From: a virus
Taxonomy: Duplodnaviria; Heunggongvirae; Uroviricota; Caudoviricetes
Virus record (IMG/VR): IMGVR_UViG_2802429225_000001
DNA length: 13,287 nucleotides
Direction: 5' to 3' (one strand)
The translations under genes and the position numbers were made by a program. Shown here in pieces: positions 1,747 to 13,096 of this stretch (position 1 is the first letter of the stretch; every line of letters begins with the position of its first letter). Under the pieces are notes generated by a model. It worked only from the letters and a program-made list of their open reading frames with translations, had not been told where the DNA came from and did not search any database.

Positions 1747-3440
1747 AATTGATACAACGCTGCATGATTAATGGCGAACAGGTGGAAATTGCCGATATAA
1801 ACCTTGTTCTTACCCTGAATGCTGCCGGTCGTGGCTTCATTTCTGTTAACAATCTGTCACCCGAACACAGCCTTGCCGGCGCAATGGTACAAATTGATCT
1901 CGGCCGTGACGGTGAAGCATGGCGCTATTTCTCCGGCTACATTGAGCGCGATCAACCTGCTGAAAATGGCTCACGTCGCCTTTTTATCCGTGAAGCAGCT
2001 GCTGTGCTGGATTTTGATTTCCCTTGCTCCATGCAACACCCGACGTTGCGGGGGGTACTCGATAATCTGGGCAAACAAAGCGGCATCGTTTTCATCACGC
2101 CAGATGCGGATTACGTCAGCATACCAACTCCCTACATCACCCACAGCGGCAGCGGAGCACAACTGCTCAGCCAACTGGGGCGAGCATTCAGTATCAGCGA
2201 TTACGTCTGGCATCCAATGCCGGACGGTTCTGTATTTGTGGGAAGCGCAGCTGATTCACGATTTGCCAGTATTACAATGCCGGATATTCCGCAACAGTAC
2301 ACACTCGGGCAAAGCGGCGGAAACAGCATCGACATCATGTTTATGGAAACTGTGCGACCGGGCGTGAACCTACCGGCCGGGCGCATTACCCGTGTAGCCC
2401 TCAACAACGAGAAAATGACCCTGACATGGGAGCGCCTTACCGCCACGGGTAGCCCTGTTTCCAAATCACCATTACGCAGACAAATGGAAACACAGTTCCC
2501 GGAACTGGCCAGCGGTACTCTTCATACCCGGCTGGCGCGCGTCATTGCCCCAACGGAATCCGTCACCCTGGGCGATGTAGCCGACAGCTTCCGCCCACGC
2601 TACGCCGTTGATGTGCAGTTGCTTGATGAGAACGGCAACGATAAAAACGATACACCTGTTTACCCGGCAGTACCCCTCCCCGTCCCCATGGCTGGCAGTG
2701 AGGCGGGATGTTTTGCCTACCCGCCGGCTGGCACCATCGTGGAAATATCCAACATTGAAGGACGACCGGATAAACCTGTCATCAGGCAAATCTTACCCGC
2801 GGGCCATAACCTGCCTGATGTAAAGCCCGGCGAACAGCTGCAGCAACAGCGCGCAGAAGTGTTTCAGCGCGTCACGACTGACGGAAGCTGGCACAGAGAA
2901 ACCGATCAGCAAATCAGGGAGCATTCAGCCAGGCGAACCATTAACAGCGATCAGGAAGAACGCACAACAACAACCAGAACAACAACAGTACAGGCAAACG
3001 ACATAACCAGCGTTCTGGGAACCAGCAAGCTGATGACAGGCCAGACAGAACACATTACTACTGGCCATTATGCGATCGCAGCCGGTGAGCATATCCAGAT
3101 GGTAGCGCAGGATTTGCTGACTAAACTCAAAGGGGCGACATCCACCATCGAACATAACCTCACCGAAAATGTGGGAGGCCGCAGAACATGCCGGGCGGAC
3201 GGCGGCCTGGAATTTACCGCCCCGACTGTATTTATCGGTCGCGGTGGCTCACGGGAAAAATCCGGACTTAATCTGCTGACGTTGTTGATTGATATTCTGG
3301 ATCTGGTTCAGTTGCTGGCCACACACACTGCAAACCATACCCATAGCAATACTGGCGCACCAACAAACAGCAGCGAACTTGCCACAGACGCCCAACAGGC
3401 TACGAGCCTGCGCGAAAAATACGGTGACCTTATCGCCTGA
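1743..3440 (+). CDS. Prophage structural-type protein (565 aa); possible baseplate hub (gpD/gp27/VgrG-like N-terminal region) with Thr-rich linker and His-cluster C-terminal region
   Basis: Long ORF, translationally coupled to upstream gene. N-terminal segment (AWRYFSGYIER ... LRGVLDNLGKQSGIV) resembles the conserved hub motif of gpD/VgrG proteins as I recall it; C-terminal part has ERTTTTRTTTV and HTANHTHSNTG (HxH-type cluster as in spike tips). Functional call is by-eye only. Confidence 0.6.
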   Translation: MKLIQRCMINGEQVEIADINLVLTLNAAGRGFISVNNLSPEHSLAGAMVQIDLGRDGEAWRYFSGYIERDQPAENGSRRLFIREAAAVLDFDFPCSMQHPTLRGVLDNLGKQSGIVFITPDADYVSIPTPYITHSGSGAQLLSQLGRAFSISDYVWHPMPDGSVFVGSAADSRFASITMPDIPQQYTLGQSGGNSIDIMFMETVRPGVNLPAGRITRVALNNEKMTLTWERLTATGSPVSKSPLRRQMETQFPELASGTLHTRLARVIAPTESVTLGDVADSFRPRYAVDVQLLDENGNDKNDTPVYPAVPLPVPMAGSEAGCFAYPPAGTIVEISNIEGRPDKPVIRQILPAGHNLPDVKPGEQLQQQRAEVFQRVTTDGSWHRETDQQIREHSARRTINSDQEERTTTTRTTTVQANDITSVLGTSKLMTGQTEHITTGHYAIAAGEHIQMVAQDLLTKLKGATSTIEHNLTENVGGRRTCRADGGLEFTAPTVFIGRGGSREKSGLNLLTLLIDILDLVQLLATHTANHTHSNTGAPTNSSELATDAQQATSLREKYGDLIA

Positions 3441-3479: not shown

Positions 3480-3508
3480 AACGCACGGCTCCGGTCGTGC
3501 GTTTTCAT
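3480..3508 (+). terminator. Candidate intrinsic terminator after the 565-aa gene
   Basis: Stem ACGCACG (3481-3487) / CGTGCGT (3496-3502), 8-nt loop, followed by TTTTC; lies 40 nt after the stop at 3440. Confidence 0.4.
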
Positions 3509-3983
3509 ATCTGCCACCTGATTAATGCGTTCTGCGTGCCATTCCGGCGCTGTATGCGCACACCACGTAAACGGTGTGACGTAAAGCGTGAGGTGACGTA
3601 AACCGCGCTACCCCCTCCAACCCGCGGGTTTTGTGTCGAAACACTTTTTCAGTTTTCTGCCGTGCAAAAATGACCGCCAGCCCGCGCAGCAACTGAGGGA
3701 AAAGCGAAGATCTGAAATTTCACGTTTTGAAATTTTTTGCAGTTTTCAGAGAGGTTTTTACGATCGCACAAATGGCAGGGGCAATAAAACTGCATGATAT
3801 TAAAAGAGTTTTCATGCTTTACGTGGGACAAGACACGATCGCGAAAGGATCGCGTTAAACAACTCTCAAACAAAGAAGCCAGACGCAGCGCGGCCTGCGT
3901 AAAATCAAGAGCCAGAATTAAACTGAAAAAAGGATCAATACCACGCCTCGATCGCGCATGACGATCTATGCAGCAACATGACG

Positions 3984-4050
3984 AAAAAAAACCGGCGCGA
4001 ACGCCGGCGGAAGCATGTATCAAATGCGTGACTGAATAATGTCTGCGGTC
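3984..4050 (-). ncRNA. Candidate small RNA (about 67 nt) with its own promoter and intrinsic terminator, divergent from the hok-like promoter
   Basis: On the minus strand: -35 TTGAGG (4079-4084), 16-nt spacer, extended -10 TGaTATAAA (4057-4065), then about 67 nt ending in hairpin CCGGCG-UUCG-CGCCGG (3992-4007) followed by eight U (A-run 3984-3991 on plus strand). No convincing ORF or Shine-Dalgarno inside. Confidence 0.35.
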
Positions 4051-4088
4051 GGGAATTTTATATCAGAAGACTGACAGGCCTCAACGGA

Positions 4089-4118
4089 TTGAAACAAGGG
4101 AAAAAACCAGGCTAGAAT
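4089..4118 (+). promoter_or_regulatory. Candidate sigma70 promoter of the hok-like mRNA
   Basis: TTGAAA (4089-4094), 18-nt spacer, TAGAAT (4113-4118); predicted start near 4125, exactly where the 5' element complementary to the 3' end begins. Confidence 0.45.
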
Positions 4119-4168
4119 TCGCGCGGGTGCCTTTCGGCTGATGGCTGGAGGGAATACCTGAAGGCCGG

Positions 4169-4351
4169 ATGTGGAAAGGCCCCGGAAAACATTTTTGTTT
4201 AACCGAGGCCCTAACCGTCTACCTAGCAAGTGATAGGTTAGCGCCTCCCCGAAAAAGGAGCAAGCGCTATGTCGCAAAAATCGCTTACAGCCATCACGTT
4301 CTGTGTGACGGCAATCCTCATCATCTGGATGCTGCACGGCTCGCTGTGTGA
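4169..4351 (+). CDS. mok-like overlapping reading frame (60 aa) upstream of and overlapping the hok-like toxin gene
   Basis: ORF starts at ATG 4169 (GAAGG 4160-4164 upstream), is in a different frame from the toxin ORF and ends inside it, as mok does in hok/sok loci. Protein shows no recognisable domain, so the role is by position only. Confidence 0.3.
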   Translation: MWKGPGKHFCLTEALTVYLASDRLAPPRKRSKRYVAKIAYSHHVLCDGNPHHLDAARLAV

Positions 4352-4409
4352 AATACGGATGAGCTTCTGGGGAGCGGAGTTTGCGGCGTTCTTACAGTGT
4401 AAGCAGTAA
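4269..4409 (+). CDS. hok: Hok/Gef-family type I toxin (46 aa small membrane peptide)
   Basis: ATG 4269 preceded by AAGGAG (4255-4260, 8-nt spacer). Translation MSQKSLTAITFCVTAILIIWMLHGSLCEIRMSFWGAEFAAFLQCKQ has a hydrophobic N-terminal helix plus the SLCEIR ... E.AAF motif shared with Hok (R1) and HokA. Below the size cut-off of the supplied ORF track. Confidence 0.7.
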   Translation: MSQKSLTAITFCVTAILIIWMLHGSLCEIRMSFWGAEFAAFLQCKQ

Positions 4410-4495
4410 GGAAACCGCGACGGGGGAGTAATCCCCCGTCAATCGGTTGCTAAGGTTGGTCGAAACGGCACCCTATCTCACAGACATGAACAACA

Positions 4496-4530
4496 AACCC
4501 GCAGCGTAAAAACTGCGGGTTTTCTTTTTG
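4496..4530 (+). terminator. Intrinsic terminator of the hok-like transcript
   Basis: Stem AACCCGCAG (4496-4504) / CTGCGGGTT (4513-4521), loop CGTAAAAA, followed by TTTCTTTTTGTTG. Confidence 0.6.
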
Positions 4531-4579
4531 TTGCCCTCACAAATGAGGGTGACACTATTCGTAAGCAATAGGCATGACA

Positions 4580-4627
4580 GATCGATGCAATAAATCCGAT
4601 CGATAAAAACGATCGGTTTGTTATCAT
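4580..4627 (+). promoter_or_regulatory. Regulatory region of the com-methyltransferase operon: three clustered GATC sites plus candidate extended -10 promoter
   Basis: GATC at 4580-4583, 4598-4601 and 4611-4614 (two within ATCGAT); TGtTATCAT extended -10 at 4619-4627 with no good -35 (the -35 position coincides with a GATC). Resembles the layout upstream of Mu mom. Confidence 0.4.
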
Positions 4628-4661
4628 ATCGGCAGCAGTAACCACACAAGAGGTGCCGCAA

Positions 4662-4859
4662 ATGACGCAAAATGTACGATGCAAAAATTGCAACAAACTA
4701 CTTGCCCGCGCCTCATTTCACTACATTGAAATAAAATGTCCGCGCTGCAAAACACTTAACCAGATAACGAGAGCCATTGAGCACCCCACACGCATGAGGA
4801 GTTATGACCGTGGGGATCGCAACCCAGCATCAACCAGTACATACACCGGAACACACTAA
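4662..4859 (+). CDS. com: Com-like zinc-finger translational regulator (65 aa from ATG 4662; the ORF track starts 3 codons earlier at GTG 4653)
   Basis: AAGAGGTG Shine-Dalgarno (4648-4655) 6 nt before ATG 4662. Protein MTQNVRCKNCNKLLARASFHYIEIKCPRCK ... EHPT carries the CxxC ... CxxC motif and surrounding residues of phage Mu Com. Confidence 0.8.
   Translation: MTQNVRCKNCNKLLARASFHYIEIKCPRCKTLNQITRAIEHPTRMRSYDRGDRNPASTSTYTGTH
4784..4815 (+). promoter_or_regulatory. Stem-loop sequestering the methyltransferase ribosome-binding site and start codon (candidate Com-responsive translational operator)
   Basis: CCCCAC (4784-4789) pairs with GTGGGG (4810-4815); the 20-nt loop holds GAGGAG (4796-4801) and ATG 4804. 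Lies inside the 3' end of com. Confidence 0.4.
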
Positions 4860-5610
4860 GATTTACCAGATTGACAATGCCACGCTCTGTCGTGGAAATG
4901 CACTGGAAATATTGCCGCTGATTGAGCCAGAAAGCATTGATGCCTTAATCACTGACCCGCCTTACAGTTCGGGTGCGACACACAAGGCCGGACGCACCAA
5001 CCAGGGCAGTCATGCAAAATATCTGAACGGCGAGAACCTTCACCGCTTTGATGGGTTCGCGGGTGAGAACATGGACGCCCGTTCGTGGGCTTACTGGACA
5101 CAATTATGGATGGCACAGGCACTACGTGCAGTCAGGTCGGGCGGTTATGCCCTGGTATTTACTGACTGGCGACAACTGCCTGCTTTAACCGATGCGTTTC
5201 AGGCCAGCGGTTTTACATGGCGTGGAATCATTGCGTGGAACAAAGGAAAGGGGTCACGAACACCCCATACGGGGTATTTCCGGCATCAGTGCGAATACAT
5301 CGTCTGGGGCAGCAAAGGCCATTTAGGTAAATCGCCTTCGGGTCCGTTCGACGGCTGCATGACGTTCCCGGTTATCCCGTCAAAGAAAATGCACCCGACC
5401 GGAAAACCAGAAGAACTAATGGCAGAGCTGGTCAGAACTGCGAATAGTGGCGGAACAGTCCTTGATCCTTTTATGGGGTCAGGGACAACGGGTGTGGCTG
5501 CACTGAAAGCAGGGCGAAAATTTATTGGTATAGAAACCAGTGATCATTATTTTGAGGTAGCGGCGCAGCGGCTTCGGGGGACTATTACCACAACCATTTC
5601 GACTACATAA
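4804..5610 (+). CDS. DNA amino-methyltransferase, beta class (N6-adenine or N4-cytosine; N6_N4_Mtase type), 268 aa
   Basis: Motif IV DPPY (LITDPPYSS) precedes HPTGKP and motif I DPFMGSGTT, the beta-class order (IV before I). Start overlaps the com 3' end out of frame (ATG 4804; alternative GTG 4810). Confidence 0.85.
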   Translation: MTVGIATQHQPVHTPEHTKIYQIDNATLCRGNALEILPLIEPESIDALITDPPYSSGATHKAGRTNQGSHAKYLNGENLHRFDGFAGENMDARSWAYWTQLWMAQALRAVRSGGYALVFTDWRQLPALTDAFQASGFTWRGIIAWNKGKGSRTPHTGYFRHQCEYIVWGSKGHLGKSPSGPFDGCMTFPVIPSKKMHPTGKPEELMAELVRTANSGGTVLDPFMGSGTTGVAALKAGRKFIGIETSDHYFEVAAQRLRGTITTTISTT

Positions 5611-6349: not shown

Positions 6350-7775
6350 TAATGCCAGTCAGTTAAGCAACTGACTGGCTCTTTTTCGGGGCTGTGGGGG
6401 ATTTCCAGGGTCTCTCCTTTACCACTCTCGGGAAGGCCCTTTCCCTTCTTGTCGGTAATTTCACTAGTTGTCCCATACTTGCAAGATCGCGCATCAGCTC
6501 CGGTATACGTCCCGGTGAAGCGCCCTGCAATGTCATCAGCATTCTCATCACCATTCCGCATGATTCTGAGAAACTCAGTTGATTCGGCCAGTAACCTTTC
6601 AGATGTTCTGCCATTTTAATCATCTGATATCTCACCAGATTATAAGCCAGTAAGACACCCCATAGCTCTTGCTCCACAAGCTCCGGCTTTTTACTTCTCA
6701 GCGTCAGCCTGCTCAGTTGCATCGTCTGTTTTATCTCCCTGTATCCCAGTTCGATTTCCCAGCGATGACTGTACAGATCCGCCATTTCTCCTCCGGGGAA
6801 GCGCATGGCGTCCGTCATCGACGTCAGCAGATGGCAGACTTTTCCTTTGCGCGTCACGGTCAGCAGGCGGGCTGTCACCTCATTTCCCAGTCCCGGCCAC
6901 TTTTTTCGTGCCTGCGGGCTGGTTTTCAGCTTCACCAGATGATCGCCTTTACCCAGTTTTCTGATCTCTTCATATTGCGCTCCCTTTCTGAGAGGGATCA
7001 TCCAGTGGCGGTGTTCTCCCGCCTGGCTCCAGGCATTTAACAGTCCCAGTGAGTAATAACCTTTATCCATTAACGTCAGGGTGTTATCGCCGGTTTGTTC
7101 TATAAGTTGCTCAGCAAGCTCATTTTCGCTGTTCTTCATCGTGCCGAAAGCTGCAGCCGTCAGCAGATGGCTGGTCAGTTCCATCTGGCAGACCATTTTG
7201 ACCTGCGGGTAGAGCGCCGGGTTCCCGGCATGTGTCTGGCGGGGGAAGGCTGCATCGTTCTCTGGTGTATCCGGTGTGCGCCAGAACACACCATCGATGG
7301 CCAGCAGGGTCAGGCCGCACCAGTGCGGATGCGGCGTGGCGTTATGCCAGAGCTGCGCTGTTTTCGTGAACACGCGGCGGACAGCCTCACTTCCCAGGCG
7401 CTGGCGGGCCTGAATAACGGCACTGGGGGCAACGAAGGGGCGATTGCCCGGTAGCATGATGTCCAGGCGATTCACAATCTGGTGAAGAGGTTCTTTACGC
7501 TCAAGCGCCATGCCAACAATACACCAGACCATCATTTCGAGGGGAAGACGGCGCTTGCGTAGCGTTACAGTACCTGATTCGGCAAGGCAACGAGAGATGA
7601 GTTCGGGGTCGAGGTAATCCCCCAGAGAAGTCAGTGGGTTACGCAGAGAATCGTAACGGGATACCAAATCAAGTGCCTGTCCAATGAGCATAAAAAAATC
7701 CGGAAACGAGTGAGCGTTTCCGGATTCTTACACAGCCACTGGATCGGTCAACTGATCCTTAACTGATCGGCATTA
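6350..7775 (-). mobile_element. IS4 insertion sequence, complete copy (1426 bp) with 18-bp imperfect terminal inverted repeats
   Basis: Ends TAATGCCAGTCAGTTAAG (6350-6367) and, reverse-complemented, TAATGCCGATCAGTTAAG (7758-7775), 16/18 match. Length 1426 bp and a single 442-aa transposase ORF match IS4 as I know it; flanked by the 13-bp direct repeat. Confidence 0.9.
6363..7691 (-). CDS. insG: IS4 transposase (DDE family, InsG-type), 442 aa
   Basis: Full-length ORF inside the IS. Start ATG at 7689-7691 is immediately preceded on the minus strand by an 11-bp stem (7698-7708 / 7715-7725) and a U-run, a typical IS read-through barrier. Confidence 0.9.
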
Positions 7776-10393: not shown

Positions 10394-10455
10394 CCTAAAG
10401 AATCAAGACGATCCGGTACGCGTGATTTTCTTTTCACATTAATCTGGTCAATAAC

Positions 10456-10483
10456 CTTGAATAATTGAGGGATGACCTCATTT
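10456..10483 (+). promoter_or_regulatory. Candidate sigma32 (heat-shock) promoter of clpB
   Basis: CTTGAAT (10456-10462), 13-nt spacer, CCTCATTT (10476-10483), matching the sigma32 consensus CTTGAAA / CCCCATnT; about 40 nt upstream of the clpB start. Confidence 0.55.
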
Positions 10484-10522
10484 AATCTCCAGTAGCAACT
10501 TTGATCCGTTATGGGAGGAGTT

Positions 10523-13096
10523 ATGCGTCTGGATCGTCTTACTAACAAATTCCAGCTTGCTCTTGCCGATGCCCAATCACTTGCACTCGGGCACGACAAC
10601 CAATTCATCGAACCACTTCATTTAATGAGCGCCCTGCTGAATCAGGAAGGGGGTTCGGTTAGTCCTTTATTAACATCCGCTGGCATTAATGCTGGCCAAT
10701 TGCGCACAGATATCAATCAGGCATTAAATCGTTTACCGCAGGTTGAAGGTACAGGGGGCGATGTCCAGCCTTCACAGGATCTGGTGCGCGTTCTTAATCT
10801 TTGCGACAAGCTGGCGCAAAAACGTGGTGATAACTTTATCTCGTCAGAACTGTTTGTTCTGGCGGCACTTGAGTCTCGCGGCACGCTGGCCGACATCCTG
10901 AAAGCAGCAGGGGCGACCACCGCCAACATTACTCAAGCGATTGAACAAATGCGTGGAGGTGAAAGCGTGAATGATCAAGGAGCCGAAGACCAACGTCAGG
11001 CTTTGAAAAAATATACCATTGACCTTACCGAACGTGCCGAACAAGGTAAACTCGATCCGGTAATTGGTCGTGATGAAGAAATTCGTCGTACCATTCAGGT
11101 ACTGCAACGCCGTACTAAAAATAACCCGGTACTGATCGGTGAACCTGGTGTCGGTAAAACCGCCATCGTTGAAGGTTTGGCGCAGCGTATTATCAATGGC
11201 GAAGTACCTGAAGGGCTGAAAGGCCGCCGCGTACTGGCGCTGGATATGGGCGCGCTGGTGGCTGGGGCGAAATATCGTGGTGAGTTTGAAGAACGTCTGA
11301 AAGGCGTGCTGAACGATCTGTCGAAACAGGAAGGCAACGTCATTCTGTTTATCGATGAGCTGCACACCATGGTGGGCGCAGGTAAAGCCGATGGCGCAAT
11401 GGACGCCGGGAATATGCTGAAACCGGCACTGGCCCGTGGTGAACTGCACTGCGTGGGCGCGACCACCCTTGATGAATATCGCCAGTACATTGAAAAAGAT
11501 GCGGCGCTGGAACGTCGTTTCCAGAAAGTGTTTGTTGCCGAGCCAACGGTGGAAGACACCATTGCTATTCTGCGTGGCCTGAAAGAACGTTACGAGCTGC
11601 ACCACCATGTGCAAATTACTGACCCGGCAATTGTTGCAGCGGCGACGTTGTCTCATCGCTACATTGCTGACCGTCAGTTGCCAGATAAAGCCATCGACCT
11701 GATCGATGAAGCGGCATCCAGTATCCGTATGCAGATTGACTCAAAACCGGAAGAGCTTGACCGACTCGATCGTCGAATTATCCAGCTTAAGCTGGAACAA
11801 CAGGCGTTAATGAAAGAGTCTGATGAAGCCAGTAAAAAACGTCTGGATATGCTCAATGAAGAACTGAGTGACAAAGAACGCCAGTACTCTGAGTTAGAAG
11901 AGGAGTGGAAAGCAGAGAAAGCGTCACTCTCTGGCACCCAGACCATTAAAGCCGAACTGGAACAGGCGAAAATCGCCATTGAACAGGCGCGCCGTGTAGG
12001 TGATCTGGCGCGGATGTCCGAACTGCAATACGGCAAAATTCCGGAGCTCGAAAAACAACTGGAAGCGGCTACGCAGCTCGAAGGCAAAACCATGCGTCTG
12101 TTGCGTAATAAAGTGACTGACGCAGAAATTGCTGAAGTGTTGGCGCGTTGGACGGGCATTCCTGTTTCTCGCATGATGGAAAGTGAGCGCGAAAAACTGC
12201 TGCGTATGGAGCAAGAACTGCACCATCGTGTTATTGGCCAAAACGAAGCCGTTGATGCGGTATCTAACGCCATTCGTCGTAGCCGTGCGGGGCTTGCGGA
12301 TCCTAATCGCCCGATTGGTTCGTTCTTGTTCCTCGGTCCAACGGGTGTAGGTAAAACCGAACTCTGTAAGGCGCTGGCGAATTTTATGTTCGACAGTGAC
12401 GAGGCGATGGTTCGTATCGATATGTCCGAGTTTATGGAGAAACACTCGGTGTCTCGTCTGGTTGGTGCACCTCCGGGATATGTGGGTTATGAAGAAGGTG
12501 GCTACCTGACTGAAGCGGTGCGTCGTCGTCCTTATTCCGTCATTCTGCTGGATGAAGTGGAAAAAGCGCATCCGGATGTATTCAACATTCTGTTGCAGGT
12601 TCTGGATGACGGACGTCTGACTGATGGGCAGGGGAGAACGGTCGATTTCCGTAATACGGTGGTCATTATGACCTCTAACCTCGGCTCCGATCTGATCCAG
12701 GAACGTTTCGGTGAACTGGATTATGCGCGCATGAAAGAGCTGGTGCTCGGCGTGGTTAGCCATAACTTCCGTCCGGAATTCATAAACCGTATTGATGAAG
12801 TTGTGGTCTTCCACCCGTTGGGTGAACAACATATCGCTTCGATTGCCCAGATCCAGTTGAAACGTCTGTACAAACGTCTGGAAGAACGTGGTTATGAAAT
12901 CCACATTTCTGACGAGGCACTGAAACTGCTGAGCGAGAATGGTTACGATCCGGTTTATGGTGCACGTCCTCTGAAACGTGCTATCCAGCAACAGATCGAA
13001 AACCCGCTGGCGCAGCAAATACTGTCTGGTGAATTGGTTCCTGGCAAAGTCATTCGCCTGGAAGTTAATGAAGACCGCATTGTCGCCGTCCAGTAA
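10523..13096 (+). CDS. clpB: Chaperone/disaggregase ClpB (Hsp100 AAA+ ATPase), 857 aa
   Basis: Two AAA+ modules (Walker A GEPGVGKT and GPTGVGKT) and the middle coiled-coil. I place the start at ATG 10523, which gives the 857-aa length I know for ClpB, with GGGAGGAG 10513-10520 as Shine-Dalgarno, rather than the track's ATG 10511. Internal GTG (Val149) at 10967-10969 matches the known ClpB-80 alternative start. Confidence 0.97.

Follow-up and report, generated by a model that had tools for sequence, protein, structure and literature searches.

A self-contained transcription unit, predicted to yield a short non-coding RNA, was identified on the minus strand of the DNA analysed here (a stretch of 13,287 nucleotides, referred to as the window, whose numbering is used throughout), back to back with a hok-like toxin gene near the right end of an HP1/P2-like prophage. 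We argue, from the sequence and its relatives, that this is a real and optional unit of the kind known as a moron, because its promoter hexamers and terminator stem survive turnover of the RNA body and promoter spacer, because it is present or absent in the manner of a module and because it has no coding potential. The explanation that we tentatively prefer, at a little short of an even chance, is that it is an independently transcribed prophage moron gene for a small RNA (sRNA) acting in trans.

Promoter and terminator of the minus-strand unit

Direct reading of both strands placed a -35 hexamer, TTGAGG, at the reverse complement of positions 4079-4084 and an extended -10 element, TGaTATAAA (TGATATAAA), at the reverse complement of 4057-4065, in full agreement with the minus-strand promoter described in the initial annotation. 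A consensus scan independently reported the promoter as TTGAGG-18-TAAAAT (4084..4055), in which the -10 hexamer TAAAAT (4060-4055) follows an 18-nt spacer and overlaps the extended element (4065-4057), the whole -10 region covering 4055-4065. The hexamers suggest a promoter of the sigma-70 type, and TAAAAT is favoured as the conserved -10, rather than the extended element, because it is kept across the type A variants described below (with one TAGAAT) and in the diverged locus L039.

The terminator consists of a hairpin, CCGGCG-UUCG-CGCCGG, at 4007-3992, the stem of which is lengthened by an outer G.U pair (4008/3991), and a run of eight U residues at 3991-3984, so that the complete element, GCCGGCG-UUCG-CGCCGG(U) with its tail, occupies 3984-4008 of the minus strand. 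It was found by reading and by folding and was also listed by the consensus scan (seven pairs, six of them G-C, a loop of four and T7+), which confirmed the textbook intrinsic terminator with eight U residues annotated at 3984-4007. The length of the U tail ranges from 5 to 8 across variants. Transcription is predicted to start at about 4049-4050, giving a non-coding RNA of approximately 60-67 nt (3984-4050); in the predicted fold of the 67-nt form a 5' part of 40 nt is essentially open and is followed by the terminator hairpin. A promoter of its own and a Rho-independent terminator with a long U tail, as in Hfq-type sRNAs, are therefore present in silico.

The hok promoter, TTGAAA-18-TAGAAT, was found by consensus scan on the plus strand at 4089-4118, outside the unit, leaving the 4 bp between the two -35 hexamers that had been noted. 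The positions of promoter and terminator likewise bear out the description of the unit as self-contained and divergent from hok.

The statement that nothing coding lies between promoter and terminator also held, as the sole internal ORF is not kept across homologues; a small protein from this 16-codon ORF (MLPPAFAPVFF...) was rejected since variation in the length of the U run shifts the frame. A 55-aa ORF on the plus strand (3794-3961) is not conserved and contains stops or frameshifts or has lost its start in many homologues. No conserved minus-strand ORF follows the terminator, and the unit was therefore rejected as a leader or attenuator for a gene further along that strand.

Prophage context

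The window is a segment of an E. coli-type chromosome containing raiA, an IS4 transposase, bamD, rluD, RyfD and a clpB-sized ORF, and the right end of an HP1/P2-like prophage abuts raiA. The insertion of the IS4-family transposase (6363-7691) lies between raiA and bamD, and the RyfD sRNA (Rfam RF02768, 125 bits) lies at 10404-10542, upstream of the clpB-sized ORF. Prophage proteins encoded in the window include a DUF4376 tail-fibre protein, an HP1_ORF34 baseplate protein and a 565-aa baseplate protein. A full copy of the prophage in E. coli SC418, with integrase, Cox, replication endonuclease, Ogr, portal, terminase and a P2-type capsid, is of P2-family layout.

The order of features at the prophage end is the last late gene (stop at 3440), a hairpin at 3480-3503, approximately 580 bp of non-coding DNA, hok, com, a methyltransferase gene and the end of the prophage. 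The hairpin, on the plus strand and 40 nt past the stop of the 565-aa baseplate gene, has a 10-bp stem (-17 kcal/mol, z -3.8), is followed by U-rich sequence and is probably the terminator of the late (baseplate) operon, overlooked by the simple scan because the stem absorbs part of the U run. Such a terminator would limit plus-strand read-through over the sRNA region, and an antisense role of the RNA against late transcripts is unlikely because the late operon has this terminator of its own. A cos site in the intergenic region is also unlikely, since portal, terminase and ogr sit in the middle of the prophage.

No non-coding block of the prophage end is better conserved than 3545-3700, a part of the intergenic DNA (pi 0.026), which is approximately 73% identical even in Edwardsiella prophages. 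It holds three ACGTAAA repeats (3567-3603), and motifs resembling TTTTTCAGTTT recur on both strands within the block and also at 3733-3746 and 3921-3937; the block could be a protein-binding array. On the other side of hok, com (ATG at 4663, encoding a Zn-ribbon Com protein) overlaps the gene for an N6-adenine DNA methyltransferase (4804-5610), four GATC sites are clustered at 4580-4615 upstream of com, and a weak TG-extended promoter, TCGATA-16-TATCAT (4600-4627), precedes it. In its layout the region 4560-5610 is reminiscent of com-mom in phage Mu, which is under Dam/OxyR control, with a methyltransferase replacing Mom.

Distribution and alleles of the unit

Of 5426 complete E. coli genomes, 41 carried the unit, which also occurred in a small number of contigs from IMG/VR and metagenomes and in the culture-collection strain E. 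albertii NBRC 107761 (= DSM 17582). Among the loci examined it was always in this HP1/P2-like prophage family, which is integrated at different chromosomal sites (raiA, flk and a tRNA-Leu cluster). The only matches in a scan of genome contigs were E. albertii and two Edwardsiella genomes, a scan of metagenomes gave no new allele types, and the unit was absent from the phage collection searched.

Four states were distinguished among the relatives. Type A is the allele of the window, with the -35 variants TTGAGA and TTGGGG elsewhere. Allele A', present in 8 of the 41 genomes, has body and terminator as in type A, while the sequence from the 3' half of the -35 to approximately +4 is replaced, changing the -35 to TTGACT and leaving no acceptable -10; it may be silent, since the body is kept without a recognisable -10. 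Type B is represented by L039, which is 75% identical overall and keeps TTGAAT-17-TAAAAT together with the GCCGGCG/CGCCGG stem and a run of eight U residues, although the loop differs; identity to the window is 88.5% in the terminator, 47% in the body and 70-80% in the flanks. The fourth state is loss: three loci (L035, positions 5212-5258, L050 and L054) carry a decayed 46-nt remnant, lacking both promoter and 5' terminator arm, beside an intact hok.

In a further relative, L030, the block corresponding to 3937-4494 (sRNA unit and hok) is replaced exactly by two unrelated ORFs. The exchangeable accessory block is bounded by a AAACTGAAAAAAGGATC motif and by the hok terminator at 4495-4522, and because the replacement sits between the same boundary motif and terminator the site is regarded as a hot spot for cassette exchange. 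The replacing ORFs (5195-6325 in L030) are co-directional and encode 212 and 126 aa; in other relatives an ORF, either one with a TM2 domain or one of 128 aa, separates hok from com. In the Edwardsiella relatives the block of sRNA and hok is missing altogether. The unit is thus a self-contained promoter-terminator module that is variably present among otherwise collinear phages, as morons are, and it is dispensable, since it is rare and has decayed in some lineages.

Exactly one place in the 13.3-kb window, the unit itself, has a promoter-like site followed on the same strand by a strong terminator within 15-150 nt. Such a pair did not occur in any of 60 dinucleotide shuffles of the window, but approximately 0.25 coincidental pairs per window were estimated from the real densities of the sites, so the pattern alone is merely suggestive. 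It was therefore considered that the unit might have no function at all and represent a chance promoter-like sequence near a relic terminator, a reading to which the estimate of coincidental pairs, the loss of the -10 in allele A' and the rarity and decay of the unit all lend something. We nevertheless consider it improbable, given the result of the shuffles and the fact that both hexamers and the stem are kept in L039 while spacer and body have turned over; it is this conservation that makes the unit convincing beyond the sequence pattern.

Sequence conservation within the family

An initial conservation profile was discounted: an exact 18-mer from the sRNA body had served to retrieve many of its loci, and conservation was inflated by that selection. 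Diversity was therefore computed on 18 unique homologues found via a neighbouring protein or by BLAST and not by the sequence pattern itself. The terminator and U tail had the lowest diversity of the locus (pi 0.005, with 1 of 25 sites segregating), followed by the sRNA body (pi 0.046), the hok coding sequence (pi 0.056) and the adjacent non-coding DNA (pi 0.093-0.105), while the sRNA promoter, with its two alleles, reached pi 0.198. The body is thus approximately twice as conserved as the flanking non-coding DNA. Within type A, counting along the alignment, variation in the promoter affected approximately 9 of the 18 spacer positions, one of six in the -10 (TAGAAT) and two of six in the -35. 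Both changes in the terminator stem of L055 preserve pairing.

A sequence-specific seed is not clearly conserved, because the body of L039 is nearly unrelated and L040 has 8 substitutions; the 5' part is unstructured and, within type A, moderately constrained, yet the body is only 47% identical in type B. A hairpin in the body (GCAU/AUGC) was rejected as the changes in L040 and L034 break the pairing and none compensate.

Selection on termination alone would account for several of these observations. On this account the terminator is an insulator that stops leftward transcription from entering the end of the late genes, and the short RNA is a by-product without function; the sources of such transcription would be the divergent promoter, read-through from a weakly terminated Sok, or read-in from the host at the prophage end. 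Three observations favour this explanation: the terminator is conserved to an extreme degree, far beyond any other element, the body has diverged in type B, and allele A' keeps its terminator without a -10. Read-through from Sok is plausible because only UUUCC follows the predicted Sok hairpin. Against it, the -10 and -35 hexamers are also kept in L039 despite turnover of the spacer, the body is more conserved than the flanks within type A, there is neither a minus-strand gene nor an obviously sensitive element downstream, and the three loci that have lost the 5' terminator arm retain hok; antisense transcription of the late operon is also not known to do harm. The insulator explanation is accordingly rated as somewhat unlikely, though it is the main rival. 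The Hfq-type, trans-acting sRNA is favoured on account of its architecture and the moderate constraint on its body within type A, and one point against it is that the pattern of divergence would be explained equally well if nothing but the start and the stop of the unit were important.

Relationship to the hok/mok/sok cassette

The predicted hok mRNA (4125-4530, plus strand) comprises a leader, a mok-like ORF (4169-4351), the Hok ORF (4269-4409) and the terminator at 4495-4522. From 4125 to 4282 the leader matches the Rfam 'sok' model on the hok-sense strand at 43 bits (E 6e-8), which falls short of the gathering score. A cognate Sok is predicted on the minus strand within the leader (4172-4263), with the promoter TTGCTC (4263-4258)-17-TAACCT (4240-4235) and an RNA from approximately 4228 to 4172 that folds into a hairpin of -24 kcal/mol; promoter and RNA were assigned from their likeness to the layout in plasmid R1. 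The cassette shares approximately 81% identity with hokW-sokW of Stx phages, and experiments on that locus showed that sokW acts against the 5' UTR as an antisense antitoxin, with 71 nt of complementarity (PMC8621323). The hokW-like hok/mok/sok cassette is complete without the sRNA unit, which is therefore considered to lie outside the toxin system, hok having its own mok and Sok.

The view that the unit is not a classical Sok was upheld, as a canonical Sok promoter and hairpin already sit in the hok leader, and so was the lack of overlap with the hok mRNA, since the unit extends from 4050 to 3984 and the mRNA begins at 4125. Sok identity was rejected because the sRNA neither overlaps the hok mRNA nor has extended complementarity to it. 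The longest Watson-Crick run between the two was 6 nt, a length equalled by 93% of shuffled sequences, and the duplex energy of -26.5 was close to the shuffle mean of -26.7, so that hok mRNA gained no support as a target. The duplex energy with Sok was -14.2, compared to a shuffle mean of -18.9, and the same complementarity test with the L039 allele and its own hok yielded nothing significant. An IstR-like antitoxin was therefore rejected for want of complementarity to hok mRNA in the window or in the L039 allele, and an anti-Sok was rejected because its duplex with Sok is no better than those of shuffles.

What prompts the idea of a non-overlapping type I antitoxin or anti-antitoxin, pairing with hok mRNA or Sok in the manner of IstR-1, OhsC or OrzO, is position: in the tisB/istR, shoB/ohsC and zorO/orzO loci the sRNA gene lies upstream of the type I toxin gene and is transcribed away from it, and the same arrangement was found here, with -35 hexamers 4 bp apart in opposite orientation. 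The pairing results, together with the presence of a cognate Sok, largely refute this idea, and we regard it as extremely improbable.

It had also been proposed that the unit is a device for promoter competition or occlusion acting on hok. A back-to-back promoter might modulate hok transcription by competition, occlusion or supercoiling coupling, and the close spacing of the -35 hexamers, start sites approximately 75 bp apart and the exchange of sRNA unit and hok as one block in L030 would be in keeping with this. The proposal did not fare well and is weakened on two counts. The spacing varies, with 18 bp separating the -35 hexamers in L039 compared to 4 bp in the window, and many hok cassettes have no such unit beside them: related sequences were present in 1757 of the 5426 complete E. 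coli genomes, as well as in plasmids, P2-like phages and Stx phages, and in the plasmids and phages homology starts only at 4081-4101, on the right-hand side of the sRNA unit. Moreover, L035, L050 and L054 retain hok and its promoter after loss of the sRNA promoter, and a role of this kind has no need of a terminator. Modulation of hok by promoter interplay is accordingly judged very improbable.

Target, family and literature searches

Duplexes of the RNA with its own prophage (37 kb, L048, both strands) were no more stable than expected, the best non-self duplex having -34.7 kcal/mol and shuffled-sRNA minima ranging from -30.6 to -38.9. The RNA as an antisense regulator of the late, com or methyltransferase transcripts, or of any other gene of the 37-kb prophage, was rejected, as no signal exceeded the shuffles; in this it differs from lambda OOP, P22 Sar, P1 C4 and P4 CI, which have complementarity to a gene or transcript of their own phage.

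BLAST searches of 28 Gb of E. coli genomes gave no match of approximately 17-20 nt or more outside the locus, and a search of the phage collection gave no match of that length. The sole match in plasmids was a perfect, same-sense identity of 18 nt to the sRNA body (GACATTATTCAGTCACGC, E=10) in four IncF plasmids (positions 1501-1518 of L061, NZ_CP059839.1, and three others) with unrelated flanks. The identity is intergenic, upstream of a gene for an S6-family (SPATE) peptidase and in the same sense as that gene, and is probably due to chance.

No family in Rfam 15 was matched at the gathering threshold, the best score being 23 bits against a threshold of 50. Weak matches to RseX (RF01401) and OmrA/B (RF00079), at 12-23 bits compared to gathering thresholds of 40-50, rest on a similar GCCGGC-type terminator hairpin and U tail; the RNA is not considered a member of either family because the body cannot be aligned. 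Its sequence occurs in no paper of the searchable literature, and the papers on Pas, svsR and hokW describe other loci.

Proposed function and comparison with known systems

In the preferred explanation, a constitutive sigma-70 promoter would fire leftwards, away from hok, and a strong Rho-independent terminator approximately 65 nt on would release a small non-coding RNA. The build of this RNA, with an A/U-rich, unstructured 5' part of approximately 40 nt, a GC hairpin and a long U tail, would be the usual one of an Hfq-type sRNA, and the RNA would act in trans by short seed pairing with mRNAs of the host or of competing phages. Transcription, Hfq binding and trans action of the candidate RNA are what we infer from these features. 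A more far-reaching version is that the unit represents an undescribed sRNA family of P2/HP1-like prophages, in which promoter and Hfq-type 3' module are conserved, the 5' seed has diversified into alleles and the gene travels with hok as a two-gene block, acting in trans on host genes or competing phages; this we consider rather doubtful.

Should the RNA be expressed, it would add a member from the P2/HP1 family to a mostly lambdoid list of prophage-encoded regulatory RNAs, and its two alleles, which have diverged in nature, would offer a practical way into the search for targets. If it is unexpressed, or a capped by-product, it would be an ordinary feature of a prophage accessory region. For annotation, the gain is that the RNA should not be labelled Sok and that the hok cassette is self-sufficient. 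The unit holds no surprise for the specialist and opens no long-standing question.

With Sok and SokW the candidate shares small size, a constitutive-looking promoter and a place adjoining hok, but Sok is antisense to the hok/mok leader, which the sRNA unit neither overlaps nor pairs with. The IstR-1/tisB, OhsC/shoB and OrzO/zorO systems are similar in having an sRNA gene head-to-head upstream of a gene for a small membrane toxin. The IstR-1, OhsC and OrzO RNAs carry approximately 18-21 nt of complementarity to the 5' UTR of the toxin, and such complementarity (approximately 18 nt or more) is absent from the alleles of the window and L039.

Neither Rfam nor the searchable literature describes this sequence family, but short orphan RNA genes are familiar features of prophage accessory regions. 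DicF and IpeX are prophage-encoded trans-acting sRNAs of E. coli. AsxR/AgvB (PMC4104026), the Pas sRNAs (bioRxiv 10.64898/2026.05.13.724894) and svsR, which lies at the 3' end of cI (PMC12803456), are of the same kind. The candidate has no sequence relationship to DicF, IpeX, AsxR/AgvB, Pas or svsR and differs in belonging to a P2/HP1-like rather than a lambdoid prophage; what it shares with them is that the gene is short and non-coding, lies in the accessory region of its prophage and is distributed patchily among strains, with an unstructured 5' part and an intrinsic terminator with a U tail.
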